Source: an uncultured bacterium
GTDB taxonomy: Bacteria; Patescibacteriota; Minisyncoccia; Phycocordibacterales; CAWITU01
DNA: 64,000 nt
Assembly: GCA_963839205.1 (NCBI GenBank)
Contig: CAWITU010000002.1
Location: forward strand, 148,627-212,626
Reading direction: 5' to 3'
Made by a program: the position numbers and the translations under genes. This document shows, piece after piece, positions 2,489 through 64,000 of this stretch. Within the stretch, counting starts at the first letter, position 1, and every line of letters starts with the position of its first letter. The notes below the pieces were generated by a model, which was not told the origin of the DNA, ran no database searches, and saw only the letters and a program-made list of their open reading frames with translations.

Positions 2489-2497
2489 AATAATAAT

Positions 2498-3211: not shown

Positions 3212-3222
3212 AAAGCTAAATC

Positions 3223-4698: not shown

Positions 4699-4702
4699 AA
4701 AT

Positions 4703-6097: not shown

Positions 6098-6178
6098 TTT
6101 ATATATTTACGATACTAAGACTAAATTAGTTGCTACTCATGACAAATCAAAATATGCCACTATGATATACTAAATTAT

Positions 6179-8613: not shown

Positions 8614-8719
8614 ATTTTTATGAAAATTTAGTAAATAGAATATAAATTATACAACGAATAAAGTTAAAAATGTCAAAAAGTTGTCTTCATAATTTCTTCA
8701 TCTTTTTTACGAATGAAAA

Positions 8720-8747
8720 GGCGCTGGGCAAAATTATGCCCAGCGCC
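8720..8747 (-). terminator. rho-independent terminator after the 8764-9165 gene
   Basis: GGCGCTGGGC / GCCCAGCGCC 10-bp GC stem followed on the minus strand by TTTTC. Confidence 0.6.
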
Positions 8748-8763
8748 TGATTTTAGAGACTAC

Positions 8764-9165: not shown

Positions 9166-9329
9166 TTTCATGACCTCCGGACTTGTGACCAAATCTATGA
9201 CCTTAATACGAAATATGGAGTACAACGTGACAAAATAAAATTGACCGACAAAAAAAGTTTCATAATTTAAAGTACTGACAACCTTTCTTGAGGCTGACAT
9301 TACCATCATTCCTTGTAATGTCAATAAAT

Positions 9330-9764
9330 TTATAGAGCCGATTTTATTAAATCGGAAATTGATTTTAATTCTGATTCAGGAGTATTTTCTCTTGGGCCTG
9401 GTCTATATAAAAATTTTCTTGGTTCATATTCTGTTATGCCCTCGTCACCACTTTTTCTTGGAAGCATGTGTAGGTGAAAGTGGGGAATTGACTGACCAGC
9501 AATTTTTTCTTCATTCCAGGCATAATTAAAACCTTGAGCACCAAAAGTTTTCGCTAATGCTGATTTCAATTTAATTCTAATTTCCTCAATCGCTTCTTTT
9601 TCGGCTAGTGTCAGATCTTCATATTTTGCTACACAACGAATTGGAAGGATTAGTGTGTGGCCAGGAACTACTGGAATATTTGTCGGAATTGCCCAAGCAG
9701 ACTCATTGCGAATGATTTCTCTTTCTTTTACTTCGGCTGAATTGCAATAAATGCAGGCTTCCAT
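9330..9764 (-). CDS. HIT-family (histidine triad) protein
   Basis: HFHLHMLP histidine-triad motif and an N-terminal CxxC. Confidence 0.9.
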   Translation of the reverse strand: MEACIYCNSAEVKEREIIRNESAWAIPTNIPVVPGHTLILPIRCVAKYEDLTLAEKEAIEEIRIKLKSALAKTFGAQGFNYAWNEEKIAGQSIPHFHLHMLPRKSGDEGITEYEPRKFLYRPGPRENTPESELKSISDLIKSAL

Positions 9765-9913
9765 GCATAGGATTCTATAGTATGAACTTTATAAAACAAG
9801 CAAAATCGGCATTTTAGATGAAATTTTTCTGAAAAAAGTCTAAAAAAGTCCTGAATGACGGCTTAAGATATGAGCGGTTGCATAACGAAATAAGCTATGG
9901 TACTCTTTCGCCT

Positions 9914-12314: not shown

Positions 12315-12370
12315 GTTTCCCTAAAATATTTTTAACTTTTCTTCATATTGTTTATGATATGTTTTTTTGC

Positions 12371-12907
12371 ATGAAAAACATCACAAATACTGAGGTTACT
12401 TTACCTTCAGAAATTATTAAGGATAAGATCTATTTTATAAGAGGAAAGAAAGTGATGTTAGACAGAGATTTGGCAATTCTTTATGGAGTTCCAACCAAGG
12501 TTCTTAATCAGGCCGTAAAAAGAAATTTAGATCGGTTCCCTGAGGATTTTATGTTTGTGCTGAATGATGTGGAACTATTAAATTGGAAGTCACAATTTGT
12601 GACTTCCAATTCGACGCTTAAGCAAAGTCTTAGAAAACCACCGCTTGCTTTCACTGAGCAAGGAATCGCTATGCTTTCAAGTGTTTTAAACAGCAAAAGA
12701 GCTATACAAGTTAATATTCAAATAGTCAGAATATTCACTAAACTTCGGGAGATGATTGATATTTATAAGGAATTAAGGGAAAAAGTGGAGGAAATGGAAA
12801 AGAATAACGAAACTAATTTTAAGGAAATATTTAGAGTAATCAGACTACTTGTTAAAGTTGAAAAGAAGCCAAAAGGTAAAATGGGGTTTGAGACAGACCC
12901 GTTGTAA
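12371..12907 (+). CDS. ORF6N-domain protein (anti-repressor-like)
   Basis: IYFIRGKKVMLDRDLAILYGVPTKVLNQAVKRNLDRFPEDFMF motif. Paralog of 35775-36344. Confidence 0.8.
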   Translation: MKNITNTEVTLPSEIIKDKIYFIRGKKVMLDRDLAILYGVPTKVLNQAVKRNLDRFPEDFMFVLNDVELLNWKSQFVTSNSTLKQSLRKPPLAFTEQGIAMLSSVLNSKRAIQVNIQIVRIFTKLREMIDIYKELREKVEEMEKNNETNFKEIFRVIRLLVKVEKKPKGKMGFETDPL

Positions 12908-14155: not shown

Positions 14156-15171
14156 TTACTTAAGACCCGCTTTTATTTCTTTGAGGATTTCATTTGCAAT
14201 TTTTGAGTTCTCTTTCAAAAATTGTCTTGTAGCATCATATCCTCTCCCTAGAATTTCCTCTTTATACTTGTATGAGTTTCCAGATTTGGAAATAATCTCC
14301 ATTTTTTCTCCAAGGGCGATGATTTCACCTTCCCTTGAGATTCCTTCGTTGTACATAAGATCAAATTCGGTCTGTTTGAATGGAGCGGCAACCTTGTTTT
14401 TGACTACTTTAACTCTGACACGGCCACCCATAATTTCTTCGCCTTTCTTAATCTGGGCAATGCGACGAATATCAAGACGCACTGATGTGTAGAATTTTAG
14501 AGCCTTTCCACCTGGTGTCGTTTCAGGATTGCCAAACATCACGCCAATCTGCATTCTAATTTGGTTAATGAAAATAACAATTGTTTTGCTCTTAGCGACG
14601 ATACTTGTGAGCTTACGAAGAGCTTGAGACATGAGTCTGGCTTGTTTACCAACATGCATTGCTCCCATATCACCCTCAATTTCATCTTTTGGAGTAAGGG
14701 CTGCGACTGAGTCTATAACGATTACATCCATCTTTCCTGATCTAACAAGTGATTCAACAATTTCAAGAGCTTGCTCACCTGTGTCTGGTTGAGAAATTAA
14801 CAGTTCGTCAATTTTTACACCAAGTCTTTTGGCGTATTCTGGGTCCATGGCGTGCTCGGCATCTATAAAAGCACAGATGCCATCTTTCTTTTGAGCCTCT
14901 GCAATGACATGAAGGGTAGAGTTGTCTTTCCAGATGATTCTGGTCCAAAGACTTCAATAATGCGTCCTCTAGGAAGACCACCGACTCCAAGAGCGGCATC
15001 TAATCCAATTGAGCCAGTCGAAATAGCATTAACATTAACTCTCGGTTTATCACCGAGCTTCATGATTGAATCTTCACCGAACTTACTTCTAATTTGTTTT
15101 AGAGTGTCTTCGACGTTTGTGACCCCAACTGTTTTATCTTCCTTTGGTTCTTTCTTTTTTCCAAATGCCAT
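14156..15171 (-). pseudogene. recA: recombinase RecA, reading frame broken once (near 14915)
   Basis: The N-part ends [10 protein letters not shown] (Walker A). The C-part, read in another frame, continues [34 protein letters not shown] single-base indel at cta-ccc-ttc restores a normal RecA. Confidence 0.9.
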
Positions 15172-28704: not shown

Positions 28705-30424
28705 ATGAAGAGTGCTCTTATCAGGCTAAGATTTGTCTCGGTAATAATTATTCTCATTGGTCTGGTTCTTATTGTAAGACTTTTTTCTCTGCAGGTAGTA
28801 TCCGGTTCGGACTTTAGAGATGAAGCAAACCAACAATACATAGCACCGACTAGCAATATATACGACAGAGGTTCAATCTTTTTCCAGGATAAAGATGGAA
28901 ATCTTTTGGACGCTGCAAATCTTGAGAATGGATATATTATGGCGATTAATCCTGAATTGGTTACCGATCCAGAAGGTGAGTATTCTAAGATTCAAAATAT
29001 TTTACCTACTGACCACACCACATTCATCCAGAAGGCTACAAAGAAAAACGATAAATATGAACAAATTGCTGATAGAGTAAATTCAACAACTACTAATGCC
29101 GTGATTGCCTTGAATCTTCCAGGAGTAAGTTTTTATCAAGAAAAATGGCGTGATTATCCACTAAGTACGCTAGCCTCCCAGGTTATTGGATTTGTCGGCT
29201 ATGATGGGAATATTCTTGATGGGAGATACGGATTGGAAAAATATTACGACAGTACTTTGGAAAGGACCAACCAAGATCAAAATGTGAATCCTTTTGCTGC
29301 TCTTTTTGCTAGTATTCCTTCAGTTATAAATTGTGATTCCAACGCAAAAGAGGGTGACATTGTAAGTACGATTGATCCGAACGTTGAATCCTATCTTGAG
29401 CAAGAATTACAGACATTACAAGATGACTACCATTCAAAAATTTCTGGCGGAATTATTATTGACCCAAATACAGGTACAAATATATGCCATGGCTGGTAAT
29501 CCATCTTTTGATCCAAACACTTATCAAGATGTTGATGACATTGGAGTTTACACTGATCCACTGGTTCAGAATGTTTATGAACTTGGTTCAATTATGAAAT
29601 CAGTGACGATGGCAATTGGAATTGATACAGGAGCAGTTACCGCTACAACTACTTATGATGATACGGCCTCAATCACTTTAAACGGTAAGACAATTCACAA
29701 TTGGGATCTTACTAGTCACGGACTTATAAATATGCAAAAAGTCTTGAATGACTCTCTCAACGTTGGTGCGGCTTATGTCGAAAGTAAAACCGGTAATCAG
29801 AAGTTTGCAGATTACATGTTTAATTTTGGTTTTGGTGGAAAAACTGGTATCGATTTACCTGGTGAAGCCACTAATCTCGTAGCCAACTTAAAAAGTTCTC
29901 AAGATGTTAACTATGCGACAGCGGCTTTCGGGCAGGGTATTGCGGTAACTCCAATTTCAATGGTTCGCGCTTTGAGTGCGCTAGCAAATGGAGGCTATCT
30001 CATTACACCTCATATCATAAGCCAAATACAATATACAGATGGCACTGTTGAAAATATTAATCCACCAAAAGGGGCACAAGTTATCTCAACTTCAACATCA
30101 AAAATTATTACAGGAATGCTTGTAAATGTGGTGGACCAAGCTATGGATGCCGATGTTGGAGGTGGATTGAAACAGGCTCATTACGCAATTGCGGCAAAAA
30201 CTGGAACCGCCCAACTTGTTGATACTCAGGATGGTGGTTATTATGATAATCGATTTCTACATTCTTTCTTTGGCTATTTTCCAGCAAATAATCCACGTTT
30301 TCTCATCTTTCTTTTCACTGATGATCCACAGGGGCAGGAACTGGCTGTCCATACTCTAGCATTTCCTTTCATAGACATTGCTAAGTTTATGATAGGCTAC
30401 TATAGTATTCCACCAGATAGATAA
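28705..30424 (+). pseudogene. penicillin-binding protein 2 / FtsI-type transpeptidase (one apparent frameshift near 29475)
   Basis: N-terminal TM and dimerisation domain. Transpeptidase motifs S-I-M-K (SxxK), SLN, KTGT. The junction reads IIIDPNTG/QIYAMAGNPSFDPN. Confidence 0.85.
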
Positions 30425-35742: not shown

Positions 35743-35776
35743 AAAAGAGGCGGCCCTTTGGGCCGCCTCTTTTGTT
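35743..35776. terminator. bidirectional terminator between convergent genes
   Basis: AAAAAGAGGCGGCCC-TTT-GGGCCGCCTCTTTTGTT. Confidence 0.8.
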
Positions 35777-36344
35777 ATAAATTTGTCTTCAAATTAGAAG
35801 TTCTAAACCCTAATTTTTCTTTTGGTTTTTCTTCTTCCTGAATAAGTTGTCTCAGTGCCTCAAATACTATTTTAAATTGCCCATCATACTTCTGCTCTAG
35901 TTTTTCTATTTTATTTTGCAAATCTTTGTGAGAAAGGAGAAGCTCCCGAAGTTTACTAAAAATTCTCATAATTTGAATATTTACATTAATTGCCCTTTCG
36001 CTATTTAATACTGTAGAAAGCATGGCTACTCCTTGTTCGGTAAATGCAAATGGCAGTTTTCTTCGACCGCCATATTCAGTCAAACTTGATGTCGCAAATT
36101 GCGACTTCAAGTTTCGGTTTTCATCTTTAGTAAGTTGAAACATAAAATCTAGAGGAAATCTGGTCATGTTTCTTCTCACCGCTTCGTTTAACCTTCTGGT
36201 TTCAACTTCATAAAGTTCAGCCAAATCATAATCCAACATTACTTTTTGGCTTCTAATAATATAGATCTTATTGTTAATTTTACTTTCTATAGTTGTTATA
36301 CCTTGTGTCATCTTAGAATCATGGTTTTTCATGCCGGTATTCAA
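35775..36344 (-). CDS. ORF6N-domain protein (anti-repressor-like), paralog of 12371-12907
   Basis: IYIIRSQKVMLDYDLAELYEVETRRLNEAVRRNMTRFPLDFMF. Roughly half the residues are identical to the other copy by eye. Confidence 0.8.
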   Translation of the reverse strand: MNTGMKNHDSKMTQGITTIESKINNKIYIIRSQKVMLDYDLAELYEVETRRLNEAVRRNMTRFPLDFMFQLTKDENRNLKSQFATSSLTEYGGRRKLPFAFTEQGVAMLSTVLNSERAINVNIQIMRIFSKLRELLLSHKDLQNKIEKLEQKYDGQFKIVFEALRQLIQEEEKPKEKLGFRTSNLKTNL

Positions 36345-36435: not shown

Positions 36436-37243
36436 AACCATCACGACTGAATTATGTTAAAAACATCCAATTTTAAGCGGCCAAAATAACAGCTATTTTT
36501 AACTGTTGTCTTGAGAAGACCGCTAAAAGCGGTTTTTTTAATAACATAACCGACTGTAACTTGAAAAAATAATCCCGCAGCAACGTTCCCTTTTATACAA
36601 GGGGTCTTTAAGACGTTGAACAGCGGAAACAGGTAAATTCCAAACAGTAAGTTTGGAATAGTAGAATAAACAAAAAACGTGGTTTTTAAATATCCTAATA
36701 GGATATTAAGAGCGTATGGTGGATGCCTAGACTCCAAAGAGGCGATGAAGGACGTGGCGTAGCTTACGATAAGCTTCGGGGAGGTGCCTAGCAACCTTTG
36801 ATCCGAAGATTTCCGAATGGGGAAACCCCACTTGATTTAATTCAGGTGATCTCTTCGCAAGAAGAGGAGCAAACCCGGGGAAGTAAAACATTTCAGTACC
36901 CGGAGAAAAAGAGACTAATAAGAATTTCCTAAGTAGCGGCGAGCGAAAAGGAAGAAGCCCAAACTCAGCCTTCCTATAGAGGGCACTCGTAAACTCGTTT
37001 ACTCGAGTATGCGTCGTACACTCTATTGGGTGGCTGGGGGTTGTAAGGTGACAGTCGTATTTGATACAAAGAGTTACAAAATAATTCGTTAATAGAAAAC
37101 GCTGGAAAGCGTTGCCCTAGAGGGTAATAGCCCCGTACATGAAAATGAATTATCTCTAACTGTCATTCTTGAGTACTTCGAGACACGAGTGGCTCGGAGG
37201 AATCTGCCGGAACTAACCGGTAAGGCTAAATACTCTTGGAGAT

Positions 37244-37282
<39 letters not shown>

Positions 37283-38721
37283 GCCCGACGAGGGCAGTGA
37301 AATAGATCTGAAACCATACGTTTACAAGGTGTCGAAGAGGTGCTTGCACCTCGACGGCGTGCCTATTGAAGAATGAGCCAACGAGTTGATGCATATTGCA
37401 GACTAAGCCCGAGAGGGTGGAGTCACAGGGAAACCGAGCGTGAATAGCGCGTAAGTATTATGCATCAGACCCGAAGCCAAGTGAGCTTGTCATGTGCAGG
37501 GTGAACCAGGGAGAAATCTCTGGGGAGGCCCGAACCGGTAAGCCGTTCAATACTTTCGGACGACATGTGATAAGAAGTGAAAAGCTAATCGAACTTGGTA
37601 ATAGCTGGTTCTCTCCGAAATAGCTTTTGGGCTAGCGTCGGATGTTCCTCTTAGGGGTAGAGCACTGGAAGGTCTCGACAGGTCGAAAGATCGCGAGACC
37701 TATCAAACTCCGAATACTAAGAGTTAAGAATCCGGCAGTTAGACTGCGGGGGCTAAGCTCCGTCGGTCAAAAAGGAAACAGCCTAGATCTCAAGTTAAGG
37801 TCCCTAAATTTATGCTAAGTGCACTTAAGGCGGTGAAATTTCTCTGACACTGAGGAGGTTGGCTTAGAAGCAGCCATCCTTTAAAGAAAGCGTAACAGCT
37901 CACTCAGTAAGAGATTTCGCACCGAAGATAATCGGGGCTAAGCATAGTACCGAAACTGAGGGTTTATTTTGTCTTAGGACAAAGTGAGCGGTAGGAGAGT
38001 ATTCTAATCTGCTGTGAAGGTAAAGGGGTGACCCATACTGGAGCGTTTAGAAGTAAGAATGTTGGCACAAGTAACCACAATGCGAGTGAAAAACTCGCAC
38101 GTCGAAAGATCAAGGTTTCCTTGGCAATGATTGTCAGCCAAGGGTTAGTCGGGCCTAAGGGGATGGCGAACGCCGAACCCAATGGACACATGGTTAATAT
38201 TCCATGACTTCTTCATTTTCTGATGGAGTGACAAAGGTCAGTATTGTACGCGATTTATGGATTATCGTTATTGGATTAAGGGTGTTTTACAGGCAAATCC
38301 GTAAGACATAAGCCCAAGATCAGATAAAATGCTTCGCTTAGGCGAAGATAATGTACAAAAGCGGCCTTTCAAGAAAAGCTTCTAAAGATAAAAATGAAGG
38401 AACCGTACCGCAAACCGACACAGGTGATCAGCTCGAGTAGAGCAAGACGAACGAATGAGAGGTCCCCAAGGAACTCGGCAAAAAAGCAGCCGTAACTTCG
38501 GAATAAGGCTTGCCCTTTGTTAACTCAAAGGGCCGCAGCTAAAGTATCTCTGGCAACTGTTTATCAAAAACACAGCTCCCTGCGAACTCGTAAGAGGATG
38601 TATAGGGGGTGACACCTGACCAATGCCAGAAGGTCAAATATCGACGTTGATAGTAGCAATATTATTGGTGATTGATATAAGCCCTGGTGAATGTCGGCGA
38701 TAACTATAATCGTCCTAAGGT

Positions 38722-38956
38722 TCTCAACTGATTCTTTTTGAATGAGTTGAGAAGGACTGGGACGATCATAGGAAATGATAAATAGTTTTAATAATCAAAG
38801 TTAATTACACAAAAGCTACCTACAATGCAGTAATGTATTGTTAGTCCAATATGGTTAATAAGAGACCAACACCATACATCCTAAACAATTTTGCAACGGA
38901 CTTGTCCTCTGCGAAGTCGAAGGATGAAGATAGAGTCCAACTTGAAGGAATAGTTG
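38722..38956 (+). other. 235-nt group-I-like intron/IVS in 23S after U1931
   Basis: The flanks join to CCTAAGGT|AGCGAAATTCC (conserved sequence). The insert follows a T and ends in G. R/S-like blocks AAGAGACCAACA and AAGATAGAGTCC. No ORF. Confidence 0.65.
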
Positions 38957-39619
38957 AGCGAAATTCCTTGTCTGGTAAGTTCAGACGCGCACGAATGGTG
39001 TAATGACTGGAGAACTGTCTCGGGGACTTGTTCGGTGAAAATACAATACCGGTGAAGATGCCGGTTACCTGCAGTTAGACGAAAAGACCCCAGAAGCTTT
39101 ACTACAACTTGGTATTGAGGATATGTTTTTGATGCGTAGCATAGTGGTGAGACTTTGAAGTTTTGTTCTCGGATAAAATGGAGTCAACAGTGAAATAGCC
39201 ATCTTTAAAAATATATTTTCTAACCTCATCGGTAAAAACGGTGAGAGACAGTACCTGGCGGGTAGTTTTAGTGGGGCGCTATCCTCCTAAAGAGTAACGG
39301 AGGAGTTTATTAAGGTTAGCTAGGCGCGAATGGAAACCGTGCCGATAGTGTAATGGCATAAGCTAGCTTGACTGCAAGACGGATATGTCGAGCAGGTGCG
39401 AAAGCAGGACATAGTGAACCGACGGTCCGTATTAGATGCGGCCGAAGATTATCAGACAAAAGCTACTCTGGGGATAACAGGCTGGTTGCGCCTAAGAGTC
39501 CAAATCGACGGCGCAGTTCGGCACCTCGATGTCGGCTCATCATATCCTGGGGCTGGAGAAGGTCCCAAGGGTTTGGCTGTTCGCCAATTAAAATGATACG
39601 CGAGCTGGGTTCAGACCGT

Positions 39620-39916
39620 TCAGAATCGAATTTTTTCGGTTTTGGACCGTCTGAATCGTCGAGGAAATATTATTGTTGCGACCACGCAATATCTGTTAAC
39701 TTGTCCATCACGGCGGCCATAAGGAGAAATTCTTGTGTGCACAGCTGACTTATATCGGTGAATTCCACATTCTATGAAAAGAAGTGCGAGGACGCCTAGG
39801 GAAAATAAAACGAAATTTTATTGCCCGTAGAGACTAAACGTCAGCCATCTTCGTTTGAATTTATTCAAAACAGATGATTACATAGTCCATTCCACACAGT
39901 GATGTGTGAAAAGAAG
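39620..39916 (+). other. 297-nt group I intron in 23S after U2593 (peptidyl-transferase centre)
   Basis: The flanks join to GGGTTCAGACCGT|CGTGAGACAGGTT. The insert follows a T and ends in G. R-like GTAGAGACTAAACG (39827-39840) pairs via GACTA/TAGTC with S-like ACATAGTCC (39880-39888). No ORF. Confidence 0.75.
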
Positions 39917-39968
39917 CGTGAGACAGGTTGGTCTCCTATCTACTGCAGGCGTTGATTTTTGAGAAGAT

Positions 39969-39999
<31 letters not shown>

Positions 40000-40310
40000 T
40001 GACCTCTGGTGTGTCGGCTGTCCTGCCAAGGGCACTGCCGAGTAGCTAAGTCGGGAAAGGATAAACTCTGAAAGCATCTAAGAGTGAAGCCTACTTCAAG
40101 ATTAGAAATCGTAAGACCCGTAGGAGATGACTACGTTGATAGGCGCTAGGTGTAAGACAAGCAATTGTTTCAGCCGAGGCGTACTAATTGTCATTCCTAT
40201 TAGGAAATTTGGAAGTCACGCATTTGTTTATCGGCGCAGGCGAATATCAGTTGAAAAGGTTTTGCGCCACAGAATACCTGTTTAAATAAATTAAAGATCG
40301 AACGTTCAAT

Positions 40311-40419
40311 TCTGGTGATTTGGCGGAAGGGCAACACCTGTTCTCATTCCGAACACAGAAGTTAAGCCTTCTTGCGGCGATGATACTCTTTTGGAGGGGA
40401 AAGTAGCTAGTCGCCAGTA
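40311..40419 (+). rRNA. rrf: 5S ribosomal RNA
   Basis: TCTGGTGA..CCGAACACAGAAGTTAAGC..TCGCCAGT with paired termini, about 100 nt after the 23S. Confidence 0.9.
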
Positions 40420-47165: not shown

Positions 47166-49417
47166 ATGATTAAAACAAGAGTTATTGCCGCTTCGATTGT
47201 ACTTCTGGCCTTGGTCATTGGTGCTTTCAACTATTATTCCGAATTTAAACCGGCATCTTTTGTCGGTGGTTTTCCTTTTAAATTAGGTCTAGATTTAAAT
47301 GGTGGTTCAGAGCTTACATATCAAGCGGATGTTTCTAAAGTTGATCCAAGCGATGTTGCTGGATCTATGCAGGCTCTACATGATGTCATTGAAAATAGAA
47401 TTAATGTTTTCGGTGTTTCCGAACCGGTTGTTGAAACTCAAGAGGCGACACTTCTAAATGGACAGAAAATCCAAAAGTTAATTGTTCAGCTTCCTGGCGT
47501 TACGAATGTTAATGAAGCAATTTCAATTATCGGCCAGACACCGGTTTTGGAATTTCGTTTAGTAAATCCAGCTAAGGCAAAACTTATTACAGCTTCTTCA
47601 ACCCAAGCTGATATTGACGCCGCTTTCGTTCCAGTTGGTCTTACAGGCAGATATTTACAAAGTTCACAAATTCAATTTGATTCACAAAGTGGACAGCCAG
47701 TTGTGTCTTTAAATTTTAATACTGAAGGCGCTGCGATTTTTGCTTCAACAACTAAAAATAATATTGGTCAGATGTTGGCGATATTCTTGGACGGCAAAAT
47801 TATTTCTAGCCCAGTAATTCAGCAGGAAATTGATAACGGTCAGGCCCAAATATCAGGTGGTTCAATGACTGCGTCAGAAGCCAAGACTTTGGCTCAGAAT
47901 TTGAATTATGGTGCACTTCCAGTTCCAATCACACTTATTGGTACTCAGACAATTGGTGCCTCACTTGGTATTGATGCCTTGAATAGAAGCGTTAAAGCTG
48001 GTATTATAGGCTTTGCAATAATCGTTCTATTCCTTATCCTTTGGTACCGATTGCCGGGACTATTGGCAGGAATTTCACTTTCAATATACGTTCTCATGAT
48101 GCTCGCAATCTTTAAGTTGGTTCCAGTAACACTTACCGCAGCTGGACTCGCAGGTTTCGTTCTCTCTATCGGTATGGCTGTTGATGCGAACATTCTTATC
48201 TTTGAAAGAATGAAAGAAGAACTTCGAAATGGTAGAACTCTAGAGGATGCGACACGAGAAGGATTCACACGAGCTTGGACATCCATCCGTGACGGAAACC
48301 TATCAAGTATTATTACTGCAATCATCTTGTTCTGGTTCTCCAGCACCTCAGTTATCAAAGGTTTTGCTTTAATCTTCGGAGTTGGAGTTTTGGTAAGTAT
48401 GATTACAGCCATCAGTATTTCTAGAACATTCCTATTGGCTGTGACACCAAAGAGTAATTCAAAATTTGTGAGATTTTTATTCAGTAACGGATTTAATTTA
48501 ATAATCATGTTCGTCATTAAATACAGAAAAATATTCTACTCATTCTCAGCACTGCTCGTGGTTATTTCAATCGCCTCACTTTTAATTTGGGGCCTTCATT
48601 TCGGAGTTGATTTCACCGGTGGTTCAGTTTTAAATGTCTCATACTCTCCAGCACGTCCATCATTGGATATAATTAATGCTCAAGTTAAGCCTCTTTCCTT
48701 ACAATCAACTAAATTCAGCCAAGCGGAAACAATGGTTACATAATTACGACTAAAGCACTTACAGAAGATCAACATCAAGGTCTTCTAAATGCCATTTCTC
48801 CTAGTGGAAGTTCAACGCTCACGGTTGATAGTTATAATACAGTTGGTCCGATACTTGGTTCGGAACTAGAAGGGAAGTCAATCGTCTCAATTATTTTAGT
48901 TATTATGGCCATTGTTCTTTTCATAACCTGGGCTTTCCGAAAAGTTTCGGAACCTGTTTCTTCCTGGATCTATGGTCTCATCGCCATTTTTGATTTGATT
49001 CACAACGTTATCGTGCCTGTGGGTATCTTTTCAATTGTTGGACATTTCTTGCACTTCCAAGTAGATACACTTTTCGTTAACGCAATTTTGGTTATTCTTG
49101 GTTTTTCTATTCACGATACGATTGTTGTATTCGATAGAACTCGTGAGAATTTGAAATTAAATAGAGAACATAATAAGAAAGAATCTTTTGATAACGTTGT
49201 TGGGCGAAGTATTAGTCAGACTATGGTCAGATCAATCAATACTTCACTTACAGTAGTATTTACACTGCTTATCCTGTATTTCTTCGGCTCAACTACTACC
49301 AGAGACTTCTCGATGGTTCTTCTCGTTGGTATCGTGGTTGGTACCTATTCCTCAATCTTTTTGGGTTCTCCTCTCCTAGTTACTATTGAAAAGTGGCAGA
49401 ATAGAAAGAAAAACTAA
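47166..49417 (+). pseudogene. secDF: fused protein-export membrane protein SecD-SecF (one apparent frameshift near 48730)
   Basis: SecD periplasmic domain and 6 TM, then a SecF N-terminus in the same ORF. The frame changes at ..SQAG/NNGYIITTKALTEDQ.. and the SecF TM bundle continues to 49417. Confidence 0.9.
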
Positions 49418-49462: not shown

Positions 49463-49837
49463 ACCCCCTACGTCCTTAATGGGCGGTTCTTTGAAAATTA
49501 TCTGTCTAAAATCACGATTTATCTTGAATTTAGACAGATTGAAATATTGCCCTGTGTAGCTTTAGCGTAGAGCGGGTAGGACCGAGAACGTATTAACGCT
49601 CTGTATTGCCTCCTATCGAGCAGCTATGGAGGGAAAACGTGCAAGTCAATTAAAATATTTTTTTGTTCTCCCGCGGAGCTCGTCAGAGCAAAGTGGGAGT
49701 AAATAATTCCAAAAACAATGATCAATTGTTGGATGAGCTAGGATCAAACTTGTTGGTGAAATATAAATTTAGATTAAGTACTATTTTTTATTTTGCCTCA
49801 TTCTAATAAATATAAGTATTTATACTTTTTATTTAAT

Positions 49838-51324
<1,487 letters not shown>

Positions 51325-52397: not shown

Positions 52398-53451
52398 ATG
52401 CAAAATAAAAAAACTAAATATAATTGCCACAATTGGTCCTGCTACTGAAAGTCAGTCACAGTTAGAAAAACTACTCAAAGCGGGTATGACTTTCATGCGC
52501 CTAAATTTTTCGCATGGTGATTTTGAAGAGCATGCTAAGAAAGTTAAGAATCTAAAGAAGGCTTCCAAGGCTACTCATATGAAGGCAATAACATTTCAGG
52601 ATCTCGGGGGACCAAAAATACGAACTGGAGAATTTCATACTCCAAGTGGTAGGGCCCATATTGAAGCAGGTGAAAAGTTTATACTTACCACTTTAAAAGC
52701 AAAAGGAGATGGAACCCGAGTTCATATAACTTACAAGAAATTACCAAAAGAAGTTAAAGTCGGTCATCGAATTATGCTTGATGATGGAAAAAAGGAATTG
52801 GATAGTTACTTCCATAAAAGGAACAGAGATTATTACTAAAGTAATCGTCGGTGGGGAACTCAAAGGGAGACGCGGAGTTAATCTTCCTGATACCAATCTT
52901 TCAATCAGTTCACTAACATCGAAAGATAAAAAAGATTTAATTTTTGCTATTAATCATAAACTTGATTATGTCGCGCTTTCATTTGTCAGGATCCTTCTGA
53001 TGTGATTGAACTTCGCAAAATTCTTAAAAAAGCTGGATCAAAAGCTGGTATCATTGCGAAAATAGAAACACCTCAGGCTGTAGACCATATTGATGAAATT
53101 ATAAAATTATCTGACATGATTATGGTAGCGAGAGGAGATTTGGCAGTTGAAATTCCTGCTGAAACAGTTCCATTGGTTCAGAAAATGATTGTTAGAAAAT
53201 GTAATAAGGCTGGTAAGCCAGTCATTGTGGCCACTCAGATGTTTGAATCAATGATCCATGCTTCAACACCAACTCGCGCCGAAGTCTCAGATGTGGCTAA
53301 TGCGGTCTTGGACGGCGCAGACGCTGTTATGCTCTCAGAAGAAACCACTTTAGGTTCTTATCCGATTGAATCAGTAGTTATGATGAATAAAGTAATTACT
53401 GCAACTCAAAAGGAAATGCGAAATCCTCATTTTCTTAAACACATAGTCTAG
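52398..53451 (+). pseudogene. pyk: pyruvate kinase (A/B domains only), about 3 apparent frameshifts
   Basis: [78 protein letters not shown] 52398 is out of frame across a 7-A run. Further frame changes near 52805 and 52995. Confidence 0.85.
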
Positions 53452-53487: not shown

Positions 53488-53574
53488 GCCGATGTGGTGA
53501 AATTGGCAAACACGTAGTGTTCAGAACGCTATGGGCGCAAGCCCTTGGAGGTTCAAGTCCTCTCATCGGCACCA
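53488..53574 (+). tRNA. tRNA-Leu (anticodon CAG), class II, CCA encoded
   Basis: Acceptor GCCGATG/CATCGGC, anticodon loop TTCAGAA, long variable arm TGGGCGCAAGCCCTT, T loop TTCAAGT. Confidence 0.9.
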
Positions 53575-53577
53575 ATT

Positions 53578-53650
53578 CGGAGCATAGTGTAACGGCTAAC
53601 ATACACGATTCGGGTTCGTGTGATTCTGGGTTCGAATCCCAGTGCTCCGA
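53578..53650 (+). tRNA. tRNA-Pro (anticodon CGG), CCA not encoded
   Basis: Acceptor CGGAGCA/TGCTCCG, anticodon stem-loop CACGA-TTCGGGT-TCGTG, T arm CTGGG-TTCGAAT-CCCAG. Confidence 0.9.
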
Positions 53651-53960: not shown

Positions 53961-55763
53961 ATGAATAATGAGGAAAAAGTAACTTATTTTGCCGAGACCG
54001 ACTCGCGCAACAAGCGGATTCCTTTTGGCATCAAAAATAAGGATAGATCTCGCCACACTTATGTGATTGGTAAAACTGGCATGGGTAAATCAACTTTGCT
54101 TGAGAATATGGCTGTTCAGGATATTAAAAACGGCGAAGGCTTTGCTTTCATTGATCCTCACGGAAAATCAGCCGATCTTCTTCTTGAATATATTCCAGAG
54201 TCGCGAATTAAGGACGTACTGTACTTTGCGCCATTTGATATGGAGTACCCAGTCTCCTTTAATGTGATGGAGGATGTAGGGGCTGACAAAAGGCATCTTG
54301 TTGCAAATGGTTTGATGAGCGCTTTTAAAAAGATTTGGGTTGACGCTTGGTCAGCTCGTATGGAATATATTTTGAATAATATTCTGTTGGCCCTCCTTGA
54401 ATATCCAGATTCAACTTTGATTGGTGTTAACAGAATGTTGGCGGACAAGGATTATCGAAAGAAAGTCGTTGATAATATTACTGACCCGTCGGTTAAATCT
54501 TTTTGGGTTGATGAATATGCTAAATACACTGATCGTTTTGCTGCCGAAGCCGCACCTGCAATTCAAAACAAAATTGGACAGTTCGTTTCTAATCCGCTCG
54601 TTAGAAATATTATTGGTCAACCAAAATCAACTTTTGATATTAGAAAATTGATGGATGAGAAAAAAATTCTCATTATTAACCTTTCCAAAGGAAGAGTGGG
54701 TGAATCAAATGCCAACCTTTTGGGGAGTATGCTTATCACTAAGATTTATCTAGCGGCAATGTCTCGAGCCGATCTAAGTGAAGATGAACTTAAAACCAGG
54801 CCCCATTTTTATCTCTATGTGGACGAATTTCAAAACTTTGCTAATGAATCATTCGCAGACATTCTTTCTGAGGCTAGAAAGTATAAATTAGATTTAACTG
54901 TAGCCCATCAATATATTGAGCAAATGTCGGAAGAGGTGAGGGCGGCGGTTTTCGGAAACGTTGGTACGATGATTGTCTTTAGAGTGGGTGCTTATGATGC
55001 TGAAGTATTGGAAAAAGAATTTGCACCACAATTTACAGCGGAAGATCTAGTTAATCTTGGTTTTTGTCAGATATATTTAAAATTGATGATTGATGGGGTA
55101 AGTTCATCACCTTTCTCGGCCGTAACATTACCGCCAATTAAAAGGGAAGCAACTTCTTTCCATAATCAGATAATTGAAAGTTCCAGAGATTCTTATGCTA
55201 GACCTCGTAATGTTGTTGAAGAAGAAATTAAGATTTGGCATGCTCCAATTGAATCACCAAGACCCGCTCAAGCCCCAAGATCTGCTTTTGTGGACAAGAA
55301 GACTATTCCAACAACTCAAAATCAGTCACCAAAATTTACAGCGCAGCAACCCAGAGAATCAATTAACCGAGATAGAAAACCATTCGCACCTCCGCTTCCA
55401 CCACCTGCTCCGGTTCAACAAACACCAGCTCAGACTCGACAAGCGGAGCGTAATGTTCGAGATTCACGTGAGACTGAGATTCGAAAGGCGATGTCATTGG
55501 ATTATTTAAAACCAAAGGTTGAACCTGAAAAGAAAAAAGAGCCAAGTGCTCAAAATATTGCAGACTTAAGAGCGGCACTTCTTTCGGTATTGCCAGCAGA
55601 ATCAATTAAGCAGACCCAGCCACCAGCTCCTCAACCTAAGCCTAAAATGCTAGAAGTAAAAAAAGAGGAGACTACTGCTGTTCAAAATAATGAAGCTAAG
55701 ACAAAAGAGGTTCCGGAGGAGGTTCTAAGAAAAATATTACATGTCGATGAACCCGAAAGTTAA
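53961..55763 (+). CDS. TraD/VirD4-like (type IV coupling-protein family) P-loop ATPase with Pro/Gln/Lys-rich tail
   Basis: Walker A GKTGMGKST, Walker B-like HFYLYVDEFQNF, AHQYIEQM. The C-terminal roughly 190 aa are low complexity (PPLPPPAPVQQTPAQT..). Confidence 0.65.
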   Translation: MNNEEKVTYFAETDSRNKRIPFGIKNKDRSRHTYVIGKTGMGKSTLLENMAVQDIKNGEGFAFIDPHGKSADLLLEYIPESRIKDVLYFAPFDMEYPVSFNVMEDVGADKRHLVANGLMSAFKKIWVDAWSARMEYILNNILLALLEYPDSTLIGVNRMLADKDYRKKVVDNITDPSVKSFWVDEYAKYTDRFAAEAAPAIQNKIGQFVSNPLVRNIIGQPKSTFDIRKLMDEKKILIINLSKGRVGESNANLLGSMLITKIYLAAMSRADLSEDELKTRPHFYLYVDEFQNFANESFADILSEARKYKLDLTVAHQYIEQMSEEVRAAVFGNVGTMIVFRVGAYDAEVLEKEFAPQFTAEDLVNLGFCQIYLKLMIDGVSSSPFSAVTLPPIKREATSFHNQIIESSRDSYARPRNVVEEEIKIWHAPIESPRPAQAPRSAFVDKKTIPTTQNQSPKFTAQQPRESINRDRKPFAPPLPPPAPVQQTPAQTRQAERNVRDSRETEIRKAMSLDYLKPKVEPEKKKEPSAQNIADLRAALLSVLPAESIKQTQPPAPQPKPKMLEVKKEETTAVQNNEAKTKEVPEEVLRKILHVDEPES

Positions 55764-57497: not shown

Positions 57498-58768
57498 ATG
57501 AAAGAGGAAATAAATATTTCTGATATTAAAAATGTCTACTTTATAGGCATTGGTGGTATTGGCATGTCCGCTTTAGCTCTCTATTTAAAACACCTTGGGA
57601 AGAATGTTGTCGGTTCTGATACTGGCTTCGCTTCGTATGAAAATTTAGTTGAAACTGGTATAGATGTTCACAAAGATTATGACTCAACCAGAATAACTTC
57701 TTCGTATGATGTTGTTGTTTATACTTTAGCAACTCCGAAAGATAATGAAGAACTTTTGAAAGCGGGTGAGTTGGGACTGCCAATCTTCACTTATGCTGAA
57801 ATGTTGGGTTTGGTCTCAAAGAATAAAAAAACTATCGCTATCTCGGGCACTCACGGTAAGACAACTACCACCGCCATGGTCGCTAAAGTATTAATTGATG
57901 CCGGCCTTTCACCAACTGTTATTGTTGGAAGTTTACTTAATTATCCTTTTGGCCAATCAGAAAAGAAAACTAATTTTATTGCAGGCGATAGTGAATACTT
58001 TGTCGTTGAGGCGTGTGAATATAAAAGATCATTTTTAAATTTATATCCATATATTTTGGTAATAACAAATATCGAAGCTGATCATTTAGATTATTATAAG
58101 GACCTCAGTGATATTCAAGAGGCATTCAAGGAGTTGTCAGATAAGGTGCCGAAAGATGGTCCATAATCACTTCAGCGGAATATGACAAGTATATTCAGTC
58201 AGTACCACCTTTAATGAAACCAGGAGAACATAATCGGAAAGATGCTGCTGCGGCATATGCTGTGGCTAAGAAACTTGGAATTCCAGAGGAGGTGATAAAG
58301 AAATCACTTGCTGATTTTCCAGGAACCTGGCGACGGTTTGAATACAGGGGAAAAACTCAAATTGGCGCCTTAATTTATGATGATTATGGTCATCACCCAA
58401 CCGAAATTAAAGCTACATTAGAAGGAGCCAGAGAATTGTTTGGAGATAAAAAAATAATTGCCGTTTTTCAACCTCATCTATACAGCAGAACTAAAGATCA
58501 CCTTCGTGATTTTGGTGAAGCGTTCACAGATGCAGATAAAGTTATTATTGCTCCAATCTTTGCTGCAAGAGAACCATTTGATGATTCAATCTCTTCTGAG
58601 ATGCTAGCTGAAGAAATAAATAAAAATGAAACTGGAAAAGCCCGCGCTATTTCATCTTTCGATGAAATAGCGCGGGCACTTCTTTCTGAAATTTCTTCAA
58701 ACGACGTAATAATTACTATCGGCGCAGGTGATATCTACAAAGTCATTGATCATCTGATGAATAAGTAG
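57498..58768 (+). pseudogene. murC: UDP-N-acetylmuramate--L-alanine ligase (frameshift near 58165; shortened central segment)
   Basis: GIGGIGMSALA, ISGTHGKTTTTAM, NIEADHLDYY, then after a frame change ..PGEHNRKDAAAAYAVAKKLG..GTWRRFEY..DDYGHHPTEI. Confidence 0.85.
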
Positions 58769-58776: not shown

Positions 58777-59913
58777 TTATCCGTTGAGTATTGGTTCTAG
58801 TCTTTGAAATAAATCCAAAGCATTGCGAAAAGTCTGGTCCATATTAAAATATTTATAATTGGCCAATCGCCCTACAAAATAGATACCATTATCTTCTAAC
58901 TTTTCAGCTTCAATTTTATACTTATCGTAAATTGAGCGATTATTTGCAGATGGAACAGGATAATATGGTTCACCGTCCCAAGTTGGATACTCGCGCACGA
59001 TTGTTGTTTTTGGATTTATCTGTTTTGTTTGATGCTTATACTCAACTATTCTTGTAAAGGGTATTGAAATGTCTGGATAGTTTTCTTGCACAACCTCCTG
59101 AAAAAATTCTTGATTCAATGTTTCCTCTTCGAAACGAAGTGATCTATATTCTAATTTACCAAGTTCCTCTTTAAAATATGAATCAATCTTACCTGTAAAA
59201 AATAGCTTATGGTATGACACAGAACCCTGAATTTCTTCCCAGCTAGTGTTAAGTCTAATCTCTATATTTTGACGATTAAGCATATTTTCAAAAATCTTAG
59301 TGTATCCATCCTTTGGGTAATATTGATATTTGTCAGTAAAGTATCTGTCGTCATGGTTTTTTCTAATTGGAATTCTGTCCATAACACTTGGTTCAAGTTC
59401 TCTTGGACTTTTATCTCATTGCTTGGTCGTGTAATTCTTAAGCATCTTTTCATATAATCTTTTACCAGCTCTTTTTAGTGCGGATTCCTCAGAATTTTGA
59501 GGTATTTCTATTTTCTCGACCTCTTTGTCTAACCATTTCTCCATGTCAGATTCGTCTTTAATCCCAGCATTAAAAATAATATTCACCGTATCCATGTTTA
59601 TAGGCATCGGTACTTTTTTGCTGTCTACATGACTTAATACCTTAGCCTCAAATGGCACCCAATCCGAAAATTTCTGAACATACTGCCATACACCTTCGTC
59701 ATTCGTTCTGAAATAATGTGGCCCATATTTTGAAATTCTAATTCCAGATTCATTATCCTGATCATAACAGTTTCCACCTATATGATTGCGTTGTTCTATA
59801 ACAAGAATTTTTATTTCTTTATTTTGTGCGTACCTTTCTGCAAGAGTTGCTCCAGATATTCCAGCCCCAACAATAACAATATCCCACCTTTCTTTGGTTA
59901 AGGTAGTCTTCAT
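58777..59913 (-). pseudogene. glf: UDP-galactopyranose mutase with in-frame TGA at a conserved Trp
   Basis: FAD motif VGAGISGATLAERYA. The two tracked ORFs are in the same frame, separated only by TGA (59416-59418) in ..NYTTKQ*DKSPRELEPSV.., where UGMs have KQW. Confidence 0.85.
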
Positions 59914-60776
59914 TTTCTTAATTCCGTATCAATTTTTTGGAAGATAGCCGAATCAATATTCAAATCAAATTTACGAGCAAACAATTCGGGAGTTTTTTTA
60001 AGTGATTCAAGATCATGAACAGTGAAGGTTGCGGGATAGGGGCCATAGGGCTTGGACCAGTCTACGTAGGTTAAGTTTTTATTAATAATGTTTCCCTTGA
60101 TATCATCGTTGCTATTTAATAGTACTGTTTGAAAGAATAATTCATCAGCTAAATAGACATGTTTAAAGAAATTCAAAAAAACTACATTATTGTTTGAAAA
60201 GTTCACTAAATATTCGGCAACTGATCTTGGGCAACCAAACCAGAGTTCACCACCATATGCCTTGTAATTTAATGGTATCTTTCTGCGTGGTAAGAAGAAA
60301 TTCATTATATTTTCAATTCTTCTCAGATACCTATTGCGCGAAACAAACAAATGATATCGCTTAAAGCGGTGCGTTCCACCACCTTTCCAGCTTGAAATGG
60401 GTAGGGCAGTAAAGGACATAAATGTTTTGTCCCTGTTCTTGCCCAAGTAGTCTATAATTTCTCGAGTTGTTTTAATTGGGTAATCCTGACCACTTAAAAG
60501 ATACAAATAATCAGGATCTATCCTTTCAATTGCAAACTTAAAAGCACTCAATACCGCCCCAAGAACATTACCCCATTTAGATTCTATTTGCGGAGCAAAA
60601 AATACTTTAGAAATGTTTGCAAGTTCTTGCTCAAATTGCTTTATTCCAACTTTTTTATCAACGTGAATGACAAAAAAGCTATTTTCAGATTGGAGGCTAA
60701 GTACAAGCTTTTTTAGCTGGATTGGGTTTTTGTGAACTAAGATAACATATGATATTTTTATATCTGAGTCGCTCAT
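59910..60776 (-). CDS. GT14-family (core-2/I-branching type) glycosyltransferase
   Basis: ISYVILVHKNPIQLKKLVLSL...FFVIHVDKK and the downstream Branch-domain pattern. Confidence 0.75.
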   Translation of the reverse strand: MSDSDIKISYVILVHKNPIQLKKLVLSLQSENSFFVIHVDKKVGIKQFEQELANISKVFFAPQIESKWGNVLGAVLSAFKFAIERIDPDYLYLLSGQDYPIKTTREIIDYLGKNRDKTFMSFTALPISSWKGGGTHRFKRYHLFVSRNRYLRRIENIMNFFLPRRKIPLNYKAYGGELWFGCPRSVAEYLVNFSNNNVVFLNFFKHVYLADELFFQTVLLNSNDDIKGNIINKNLTYVDWSKPYGPYPATFTVHDLESLKKTPELFARKFDLNIDSAIFQKIDTELRK

Positions 60777-60860
60777 TGTATTTGTTGGTTTTCATTATAC
60801 AATAGAACAATATTAATTACAGAATTACTATGAAAGTTGACGCTGAGGACTAAATAATCT

Positions 60861-61706
60861 ATGACAAAACCAATTCTCAGTATATTTTATGTTGTGGGTG
60901 GTGGCGACGAACACTATACCAATCTAGAGCGGAGTATAAAAAGTTTGGAGGAAAGGCTCGGGGTTCCATATAAAGTGGTAGTACTTGAGGTTGGTGAGCG
61001 CCTAGTTTCTACTCTAGGAGTCACCGTTTATCACATTTCTCCATTCGAGAAATCACAAGGAAGAAAAATGGATTTTAAGTTTTGGCAGCAGAAATACACT
61101 ATAGGTGATTATATTGATACCGAATACGGCCTCTATCTAGATACTGACACAGTTCTTGTACAGGATAATTTTGCGGAGATTATGCCTGCAATTGGAAATA
61201 AATTTGGTGTGGCGTTACATTTTTGGTCACCGAATTTTTGGCGCTATGGACGTTTGGCTATTCCTTTAAAAAATGCCTGGCGATTCATTATGTTGATGAG
61301 AAAGCTCGACGTGGGTTTGAGTACCCCATTCTTTGCAGGGGGAGCGTTCATTTTTAAAAATATTGAACAGAATAGACGTCTCCTTAAAGAGGTTCTTTCT
61401 CTTTATGACTATGTTTATCCTGGAGTATCAAATTATTTCAAAGGCATTACTGACGAAGTTTTTTTTAGTGCACTATTGTGGAAAGAGAACAAATTTGTTT
61501 CAATTGGTGGCGGCTTCAATCATTCTTGTATGGGGGATGAATTTATGCCATTGCGTATCGAAAATAATGTTATTTATGGAAAAAATGCCAATGAGGCCAA
61601 ATGGAGGAAAGTAACTTTTTTTCACTGCGATCCATCCAGAAGGGACCCATCCTTGCCTTATCAAGGTAAGTTAAAGGAGCTAGTACGCAGGGTATGGTTT
61701 ATGTAG
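60861..61706 (+). CDS. putative GT-A-fold glycosyltransferase (DxD)
   Basis: 281 aa with YLDTDTVLV (DxD-like). Sits inside the glycan locus. Family not recognised. Confidence 0.4.
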   Translation: MTKPILSIFYVVGGGDEHYTNLERSIKSLEERLGVPYKVVVLEVGERLVSTLGVTVYHISPFEKSQGRKMDFKFWQQKYTIGDYIDTEYGLYLDTDTVLVQDNFAEIMPAIGNKFGVALHFWSPNFWRYGRLAIPLKNAWRFIMLMRKLDVGLSTPFFAGGAFIFKNIEQNRRLLKEVLSLYDYVYPGVSNYFKGITDEVFFSALLWKENKFVSIGGGFNHSCMGDEFMPLRIENNVIYGKNANEAKWRKVTFFHCDPSRRDPSLPYQGKLKELVRRVWFM

Positions 61707-61779
61707 GCCAATTATTTATAATATGCATTGCCTTGGCAACGGTTATACAATGTACAGATGACACCAGTCAACAAATTTC

Positions 61780-62467
61780 ATGAATAAAATAAGCGTCATT
61801 ATGCCGGCATATAATGCTGAGCGTTATATAAAAGATTCCATAGAAAGTATTCTAAACCAGAGCGAACGTGATTTTGAATTTATCATAGTAGATGATGGAT
61901 CTACAGATAAAACTTCATTGATTATTTCTTCTTTCTCAGACCCACGACTTAGAGTTTTTAAAATTAATCATTGTGGTCTTATTTACTCATTAAATTTTGG
62001 AATCTCTAAGGCAAATGGTGAATATATTGCTCGAATGGATGTTGATGATATTTCAGAACCAAACCGTCTCAAAAAACAGGCTGATTTTCTTGATGACCAT
62101 CCAGATATAGCCCTGTGTGGTAGTTTCGCTACAATCATTGATGAAAATGGAAAAGTAAAAGGGAGGTTGGAATATTCGCCGATAGAAGATAAAAATATTA
62201 GGAGATATGCTCTACTCCATAATCCATTTATTCATCCAACGATTATGATTCGTAAGAAAGTTTTCGATTCAGTCGGGATGTATAAATCACTTTTTCAAGC
62301 ATGTTGAAGATTATGAATTATGGACTCGAGTACTCAGAAAATATAAAGGAGCAACATTATCTGAAGCTCCTTTTAAATATCGCATTCATGAAAACCAAAT
62401 TACAAAGAGAGGAAATTTTGAGATGAGATTGCGTGGCCATATATGTAAGGTTATTAGCATTCTATAA
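61780..62467 (+). pseudogene. GT2-family glycosyltransferase (one apparent frameshift near 62300)
   Basis: ISVIMPAYNAERYI..IIVDDGSTD..ARMDVDD, then after a T5 run the frame changes to ..FKHVEDYELWTRVL..YRIHENQITK. Confidence 0.85.
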
Positions 62468-62473
62468 GAATAT

Positions 62474-63269
62474 TTATATTTTAATCCAAGCTACTGGAAC
62501 AATGTCTGAATCTTCTTTTAGTTGAAACCATTTTTTTGGAGCAATCACTATTTTCTCTGAATTTGAATTAAGCCAAGCAGCCCACCAACTAAATGAAGAG
62601 TTGGCTATTATTTGATTTTGCACGAACTCATTAAATGGATTTCTTCATAATCTTTAATTACGTGCGTTTGATACCAAAATTATAGGTTCACAAAATTAAT
62701 ATTTTTTTTTGCCCATTCAATATCATCCGAAAAAATAAAAAACGTGGGGGATTGAACTTTTTCTTTAATGTATTTAACTGCCTTTTTATAATATTCCAAA
62801 TCACAAATTCCATGGTACGCGTTGGTTTTTTGGTCCGTAACATAATCACCACGTCGGATGTGGACTGCGATTGGACTCTGGACTCTGAATAATTAGATCT
62901 GATATTTTATTTGAGTCGCTCGCCAGTGGCAGTTTCAGTGTAAAATCTTCTCGAATAATTTCCTCAATATCCTTGAAATATTTCTCATTCTGGTAATGTG
63001 GGTAGGTGGTGAACAGCTTTTTGGATTCCTTTTTGATAAAATCTTTTTAAATAATTTTTTTTACTAGGTTTAAAAACAACAGCTTGTATATTAAATACAT
63101 CTAAACCAAATCTACGAGAAGTATCTATTTTTTCTGGAAAAATCAAATATTCTAGGTCAAGTATTAATTTCTGGTTTTTTTTAATACTCTGACTTTTACC
63201 TTTAGCATATTGAAACATCTGATTTCCGAGGCCTCCACTAAGATATTGAACAAATGCCCTGTCCACCAT
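62474..63269 (-). pseudogene. GT11-family alpha-1,2-fucosyltransferase, at least 4 frame disruptions including a 7-bp tandem duplication
   Basis: [49 protein letters not shown] are recovered from three frames. GACTCTG is duplicated at 62874-62887. Confidence 0.85.
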
Positions 63270-64000
63270 ATTTTTTCTGATAATGTTTCTTAAGTAATTC
63301 TTAATATAGCTCAAAAATATAATAAGTTTATCCCTTGAAGTCATTTGAATGTTTCTTAAGAAAAAATGTCCACCATATTTTTTCTTGTCTCTCATTAGTA
63401 TTATTGGACCATACGGTAGAACCATTCCTTCTGGATAAGCAAACGAAGGTAATAATATTTTTGTTTCGTCTAATCTTGACGATAAGTATTTGTTCCAATG
63501 GGATTCATCGTGCCATATTGCAGTAATATTTTTTTTAGTGTCATTATCAATATCATTCTGTAATTGTTTTATTGCAGCACAAAACACCTTACTACTTCCA
63601 CCATTTATTGCTCCCTGAAAATATGGTTCATTATCTTTAGGGGTAAAGAATGCTTTAGACATAGGATTGGATTCAAAAGGCTTTTCATTAATTAAAGCGT
63701 TGGAATATCCTGGATGAGTAACCGCAACAAAATTTTCCTTACCGCTTGGTAGTATTTCATTACTTGCTAATGGCTTGATAAATAAAGTATTTGCGTTGAA
63801 ATAAAAAATAAAATCGAATTGGGCGATTTCATCAATATCGTCGAGAACATCTCGTAACGTCTCAAGGTATTATTTGGCCAACCCAAGTCTTCTTGATAAA
63901 TTTTTTTTACGTTTAGGTTATTCTGGCATTCAAATTCGATATTGGAGCATCAGTAAAAACAAAGTATTTTTTTTGCGCCCCAGAAATAAAATATTCCTCA
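63270..64000 (-). pseudogene. GT6-family glycosyltransferase (NXN type), 5' end outside window, 2 apparent frameshifts, no stop before the GT11 ORF
   Basis: EEYFISGAQKKYFVFTD, LGWPNNTLRRYEMF, FDFIFYFNANTLF (NAN instead of DXD), AIWHDESHWNKY, PIILMRDKKKYGGH. Confidence 0.8.

Follow-up and report, generated by a model that had tools for sequence, protein, structure and literature searches.

Small tandem duplications are a routine route to gene death, and glycan clusters are often found in a decayed state. Among surface-polysaccharide genes, Yersinia pestis provides an example with its O-antigen cluster, which has been inactivated by frameshifts. Glycan modules that resemble histo-blood-group synthesis and combine GT6 with GT11 glycosyltransferases occur in Bacteroides and in Escherichia coli of the O86 type. 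In Helicobacter pylori, fucosyltransferase genes are phase-variable through repeats; the tracts of futA and futB are given in tables as 12-14 C, and FutC is an alpha-1,2-fucosyltransferase (PMC2583950). Like the gene described here, futC belongs to the GT11 family, a repeat within its coding sequence sets the reading frame, and its product fucosylates a surface glycan (PMC2583950). The heptad repeats found in H. pylori coding sequences are 21-nt in-frame units with another function (PMC2583950).

The phase-variable genes of H. pylori carry long homopolymeric C tracts in otherwise intact genes, and on and off variants are found together in one population. The locus under study lies near the end of a 64,000-nt stretch of DNA, the whole of which was analysed and is referred to here as the window, and in contrast to H. 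pylori its repeat is a 7-mer present twice, within a gene that carries at least four other lesions. It shares with the Y. pestis O-antigen cluster the presence of adjacent glycan-synthesis genes that are disabled by small indels and intact in relatives. Unlike in Y. pestis, the putative lesions here are those of a MAG assembly from an uncultured member of the Patescibacteria. As a whole, the feature is of an already known kind: the duplication is an ordinary scar of a multi-lesion pseudogene, or part of a low-quality patch, and a reading as phase variation is not supported.

A 7-bp tandem repeat in a GT11 gene

The gene is encoded on the minus strand at 62474..63269, with its ATG at 63269 and its TAA at 62474-62476, and reading it to the end requires four changes of frame. 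With the frame corrected, its translation matches Pfam PF01531 with 119.7 bits (cut-off 23.9; E = 1.9e-34) over profile positions 36-294 of 298. In an alignment with 10 homologues, the motifs GGLGNQMFQYA (N-terminal), HIRRGDY, FSDD..W and IANSSFSWW all fall in invariant columns. The best database homologue is 57% identical, and no solved structure was detectable for the protein by sequence. This match above threshold, together with the full set of family motifs, bears out the initial annotation, which had taken the gene for a GT11 fucosyltransferase. More specifically, alpha-1,2-fucosyltransferase is a predicted family membership, and the gene as it stands is a homologue rather than a functional member.

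The repeat spans 62872-62887, with the minus strand as the coding strand, and is reported by Tandem Repeats Finder with a period of 7, 2.3 copies and 100% matches. The plus-strand letters at 62874-62887 are GACTCTGGACTCTG, and the periodic stretch as a whole comprises 16 nt, TGGACTC TGGACTC TG on the plus strand and CAGAGTC CAGAGTC CA on the coding strand, with the unit flanked by a 2-nt microhomology. The minus-strand sequence across the junction is att att cag agt cca gag tcc aat cgc. Across the repeat, frame 0 translates as LIIQSPESNRSPHPTW* and frame +1 as ..QSPIAVHIRRGDYVTDQKTNAYHG. The duplication inserts 7 nt, a +1 change of frame, between ..LIIQSP and IAVHIRRGD, and the codons of the HIRRGD motif (62845..62862, minus strand) lie in the +1 frame, 9 nt downstream. 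Removal of one 7-mer joins ..LIIQSP to the IAVHIRRGDY.. of GT11. Thus the sequence and Tandem Repeats Finder agree with the initial annotation that a perfect 7-bp tandem duplication is present, and the two translations agree with it that the repeat breaks the frame shortly before HIRRGD and that deleting one CAGAGTC copy reunites the frame locally. Its further statement that the lesion is no homopolymer miscall holds as well, given a perfect 7-bp tandem copy.

Taken by itself, the repeat is not significant, since perfect 7-bp tandem doublets are near the chance level in the window (7 loci versus 4.4 +/- 2.2 in first-order Markov simulations). What argues for a duplication is its position, because the repeat sits inside the ~25-nt interval where the GT11 frame must change, a placement with a chance of ~1e-4. 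An alternative would dispense with the duplication altogether: QSPES would be native and incidentally 7-periodic, and a 1-nt insertion just downstream (tcc aat c from tcc atc) would break the frame. The spacing between EKYF and HxRR speaks for this alternative. When both copies are kept and 1 nt is removed, the spacing is 41 residues, as in 40 of the 143 homologues and in the five closest, whereas the one-copy protein has a spacing of 39, found in only 1 of the 143, which also counts against real decay of the gene. Furthermore, the remaining small lesions of the window are all 1-nt indels. On the other side, a perfect 7-periodic stretch of at least 16 nt is expected 0.29 times per 64 kb and was observed once, and the ~1e-4 odds of chance placement outweigh the length prior. 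A native repeat with a nearby insertion is therefore improbable in our judgement, and we favour a duplication over it roughly ten- to twentyfold, a figure that is our own estimate and not a computed one. Neither the ten-homologue alignment nor the 143-homologue spacing set showed a repeat at the corresponding position of GT11. The duplication would most likely have arisen by replication slippage or by microhomology-mediated duplication across the 2-nt CA..CA.

Programmed ribosomal frameshifting was ruled out, as the junction has no slippery heptamer of the form X XXY YYZ, and recoding at the duplication is in any case moot because of the other lesions in the gene.

The gene carries at least four further lesions

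In total, GT11 contains at least five frame-breaking defects, namely the duplication and at least four more lesions, and tblastn of the closest homologues spreads the gene over three frames. Following the coding strand, the first lesion is a net +1 change in or between two A5 runs at 63018..63034 (..RFYQK / KKLFTTYPHYQNEKYF..), seen as tblastn HSPs in frames -3 and -1 against P0001. From this point to the duplication, which is the second lesion, the segment no longer shares the frame of the start codon. The lesions beyond the duplication were located by comparison with the intact allele on L001, a Logan contig of 3145 bp assembled from the short reads of run ERR10755936. Relative to this allele, one nucleotide is lost at 62689/62690 and one is gained at 62662 (together 62662..62690, minus strand); the 27 nt between the two are out of frame and contain a TAA at 62680-62682. 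A further 1-nt deletion lies at 62617..62618, where L001 has tgcaaGaatcag. This last deletion puts the final 49 codons, including IANSSFSWW, out of frame. The final 280 bp of the gene thus differ from L001 by three extra indels and contain the out-of-frame TAA.

With four frame changes and an out-of-frame TAA, the gene offers no continuous ORF able to encode a GT11 enzyme, and loss of the duplication alone would restore none, since at least four further lesions stay. Homology to a functional family, multiple independent disabling lesions and intact counterparts in relatives are all present, as is characteristic of a pseudogene.

Poly-A tracts were ruled out as frameshift sites of GT11 and GT6, as the A8-A9 runs are in frame and encode lysines. 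Between 62531 and 63974 the window has seven homopolymer runs of at least 7 nt (A8-A9 on the coding strand), compared with ~1.3 per 2 kb elsewhere.

The duplication as a candidate phase-variation switch

The initial annotation had proposed either inactivation or a reversible on/off switch of fucosylation. Inactivation stands, with the duplication as one lesion among many, while the reversible switch falls in view of the other lesions, if these are real, and of the two copies. It had also named further frameshifts in the same gene as a finding that would make the duplication irrelevant to function, and at least four such frameshifts are present, so a functional role of the duplication is not upheld.

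A switch would operate by slipped-strand gain or loss of one 7-bp unit, toggling fucosylation. A direct tandem repeat could in principle revert by slippage, the H. pylori genes provide a precedent among fucosyltransferases, and in a near-identical strain at least the C-terminal third of GT11 is intact. However, the hypermutable tract of many units that is typical of a contingency locus is replaced here by 2.3 copies of a 7-mer, and the duplication is no contingency tract because two copies are far below known tract lengths. Nor would a change in repeat number alone switch an otherwise intact ORF: after loss of one copy, the gene would still be broken at 63018-63034 (+1), by the -1/+1 pair around the TAA, and at 62617 (-1). 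The GT6 and GT2 neighbours, which belong to the same pathway, are broken too. The intact allele differs by ~6% in substitutions and is therefore a different allele rather than a repeat-number variant, and the homologues lack a repeat at this position. Taken together, a reversible switch is highly improbable, and the site should stay off lists of candidate phase-variation switches.

A degraded GT6-GT11-GT2 cassette

The lesions extend to both neighbours of GT11. The convergent GT2 glycosyltransferase gene (61780..62484, plus strand) is truncated at 175 aa, with an extra T at about 62287-62291 (T5 versus T4 in L001). Two more 1-nt insertions at 62439 and 62459 bring it to three +1 insertions in all relative to L001, which carries an intact 226-aa GT2. 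The GT6 glycosyltransferase pseudogene (63270..64000, minus strand; Pfam 5.4e-21) extends past the window with its N-terminal ~27 codons and is frameshifted twice, at about 63944-63949 and at about 63843-63846. It also lacks a stop codon at the point where its homologues terminate, i.e. before the GT11 ATG. Because no stop codon lies between GT6 and GT11, a 225-aa chimera is called in the source annotation; this ORF (P0129, 62985-63662, minus strand) consists of the C-terminal 131 aa of GT6 and the N-terminal 94 aa of GT11. The cassette thus holds at least ten lesions in 1.7 kb, and ORF coverage is 0.59 in the last 2 kb, compared with 0.9-1.0 in most protein-coding bins and lower values in rRNA bins.

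An intact GT6-GT11-GT2 cassette is present on L014 and L015, the contigs with the closest GT11 homologue, which represent a relative more distant than the L001 strain, in the order GT6, GT11 and convergent GT2, with an 8-nt spacer between GT6 and GT11. Identity to the L014 proteins is 57% for GT11, about 51% for GT2 and about 40% for GT6. The window cassette shares its gene order and families with this cassette and with the bacterial GT6 + GT11 modules. On L014 and L015, however, the genes are intact and separated by stop codons, whereas none of the three window genes is intact and GT6 continues into GT11 without a stop. The window holds a degraded copy of this conserved three-gene glycan module. 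We suggest that the module, from GT6 through GT11 to the convergent GT2, decayed as a unit in this Patescibacteria (Paceibacteria-type) strain. The duplication would then sit in a non-functional, multiply disrupted GT11 gene, with no regulatory role and as one scar among many.

The cassette is flanked by a gene for a eukaryote-like Core-2/I-branching (GT14-type) enzyme (59910-60776, minus strand) and by a gene for a 281-aa protein without a Pfam match (60861-61706, plus strand), both intact and 100% identical in the related strain. The 281-aa protein has no relative among GTDB representative genomes. Neither GT11 nor GT6 was found in the MurD neighbourhoods of ten relatives.

Protein searches with full GT11, the N-terminal half of GT11 and GT6 gave best hits of 57% or 50% identity besides the window's own ORF, and DNA pattern scans of JGI metagenomes gave no match to the site. 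Exact look-ups of the window's ORF fragments, and of proteins close to its remaining frameshifts, likewise found the window allele in no independent assembly among those searched, which argues against real decay and for an artefact of the assembly.

Comparison with a near-identical strain

L001 and a second Logan contig of the same run, L013, represent a near-identical strain. L001 ends at window position 62749, 123 bp short of the repeat, and contains the C-terminal 91 codons of GT11 in intact form. Over window positions 59603-62289 it shows 0 differences in 2687 bp, and over 62290-62749 it shows 28 substitutions and 6 indels in 460 bp, which places the boundary of divergence in the pairwise comparison at 62290..62370. 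Within GT11, 12 of 21 substitutions fall at third codon positions. Of all 28 substitutions, 14 are transitions and 14 transversions, versus the 1:2 expected at random. Where the alleles differ, the window agrees with the family consensus at A, K and Y (EWAKKN, KDYEE) and L001 does not. Because of this third-position bias, the share of transitions and the consensus-like residues, the window allele is a real and different allele and not noise on the L001 sequence.

The intact and the window cassette alleles are ~6% apart in substitutions, and since vertical neutral decay cannot give ~6% beside 0%, either an exchange of alleles by recombination or a strain-mosaic contig is called for. Of these, an exchange of degraded and intact cassette alleles by recombination is the step we propose. 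Mutagenesis by a diversity-generating retroelement was considered as a source of the dense differences and set aside, as the substitutions are not adenine-specific.

L013 matches window positions 1-9801 without mismatches except for two events. One is an A5 in L013 (7930-7940) against an A6 in the window (6426-6431): the window keeps a 155-aa ORF at 6179-6646, which the A5 of L013 splits into 86 and 43 aa. At this site the strains seem to be truly polymorphic for a homopolymer frameshift. The second event, at about 8517-8520, is a complex change of 3 nt. Apart from these two events, the window matches independent short-read contigs over 12.5 kb, many homopolymers included.

Disrupted genes elsewhere in the window

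Several core genes outside the cassette are disrupted as well. The recA gene (14156-15171, minus strand) is split into two ORFs by a 1-nt deletion at about 14850, which falls just after the Walker A motif (GKTTL / LHVIAEAQ); Pfam RecA positions 3-78 lie in 14863-15171 and positions 92-262 in 14156-14848. The gene for a PBP2-type penicillin-binding protein (28705-30424, plus strand) has a 1-nt insertion at about 29455 (DPNTGT / IYAMAGNPSFDP) that divides it into two ORFs, PBP_dimer and Transpeptidase, with a 128-nt overlap. In secDF (47166-49417, plus strand), a 1-nt deletion at about 48735 (..FSQAE / NNGYIITTKALTED..) cuts the C-terminal part of SecF off from the rest. The pyruvate kinase gene pyk (52400-53451, plus strand) carries three frameshifts in ~600 bp, at about 52425, 52790 (an A6 run) and 52985, and its N-terminal segment has no in-frame start codon.

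The murC gene (57498-58768, plus strand) is split at 58160-58225. The gap from ..VPKDG to PGEHN.. measures 62 nt in the window versus 117-120 nt in three relatives whose sequence was read throughout, and in 10 of 10 relatives the two halves share one frame with a longer gap, which indicates a putative single frame-shifting deletion of 55/58 nt. In the UDP-galactopyranose mutase gene glf (58777-59913, minus strand), a TGA at 59416-59418 replaces the conserved Trp of ..YTTKQW... UGA recoding is unlikely as an explanation for this codon, as TGA terminates 6 of the 39 long open frames. Damage to so many core genes points either to an assembly prone to indels or to a genome in decay.

Real decay or assembly artefact

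We consider GT11 to be probably a multi-lesion pseudogene in a degraded GT6-GT11-GT2 cassette, with lesions that are real mutations rather than consensus errors. An unlikely but serious alternative is an assembly or consensus artefact, in which the last 1.7 kb would vary between strains and have read coverage that is thin or error-prone. The organism itself would then lack most of the 1-nt indels, and perhaps also the duplication (which could stem, for example, from consensus-window stitching), and its GT6, GT11 and GT2 may be intact.

The state of the other genes weighs towards an artefact. Disruption of recA, PBP2, secDF, pyk, murC and glf would be odd in a living cell. The first four of these are essential-looking genes with frameshifts, and recA, PBP2 and secDF are otherwise well conserved and carry one 1-nt lesion each. 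Within the cassette, frameshifts and nonsense substitutions stand at ~10 to 0, in-frame nonsense substitutions being absent, and insertions outnumber deletions, a pattern more typical of consensus errors than of the way bacterial pseudogenes decay. Furthermore, the six indels in 460 bp against L001 amount to about 1.3%, within the range of raw long-read error, and a 279-kb MAG contig with 23S, 5S and 16S genes hints at a long-read assembly.

In favour of real decay, the perfect 7-bp copy and the 55/58-nt deletion in murC are atypical of base-calling errors. The agreement with short-read contigs over 12.5 kb, homopolymers included, argues the same way, as does the homopolymer frameshift that the Logan strain carries and the window lacks. 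Lesions are ~60 times as dense in the cassette as elsewhere in the window, which likewise favours real decay over an artefact. The cassette indels lie mostly outside long homopolymers with insertions at least as frequent as deletions, and the substitutions show third-position bias and consensus-like residues; these points also tell against an artefact. We infer that the lesions are real, that slippage produced the duplication and that cassette alleles were exchanged by recombination.

A more far-reaching form of this reading, which we hold to be doubtful, is that the lesions are real, that the two strains differ by wholesale replacement of a blood-group-like GT6-GT11-GT2 module, and that the genome carries genuine core-gene lesions. 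If true, one cassette allele would be intact and the other ~6% divergent and degraded, despite the absence of substitutions over the 12.5 kb shared. This would amount to population-level glycan variation in an actively decaying CPR genome, one that, with recA, murC, PBP2, pyk and secDF disrupted, is losing surface-glycan and cell-wall functions. The many disrupted genes on the source contig are a warning about MAG quality or, if reads confirm them, a case of a CPR bacterium in which genes are still decaying and alleles of a surface-glycan locus are exchanged.

Genome context

The taxonomic placement is based on relatives of the MurD encoded in the window, which at 52-55% identity come from MAGs of Paceibacterota, Yonathbacteria and Nomurabacteria. 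In the window, the rRNA genes lie apart, at 36696-40419 and 49834-51324, with 23S-5S lying 9.4 kb upstream of 16S, which is an unusual order. The 23S gene spans 3509 nt versus a 2925-nt model, equivalent to an insertion of ~580 nt, and an ORF inside it (39368-39748) has no Pfam match. An unlinked rRNA order and an enlarged 23S are typical of CPR bacteria. Two genes with ORF6N domains are present at 12359-12907 (plus strand) and 35775-36344 (minus strand), and a gene for a TraD/VirD4-like coupling protein (53961-55763) adjoins a tRNA pair (53488-53650). The ORF6N genes and the TraD/VirD4-like gene may be remnants of mobile elements.
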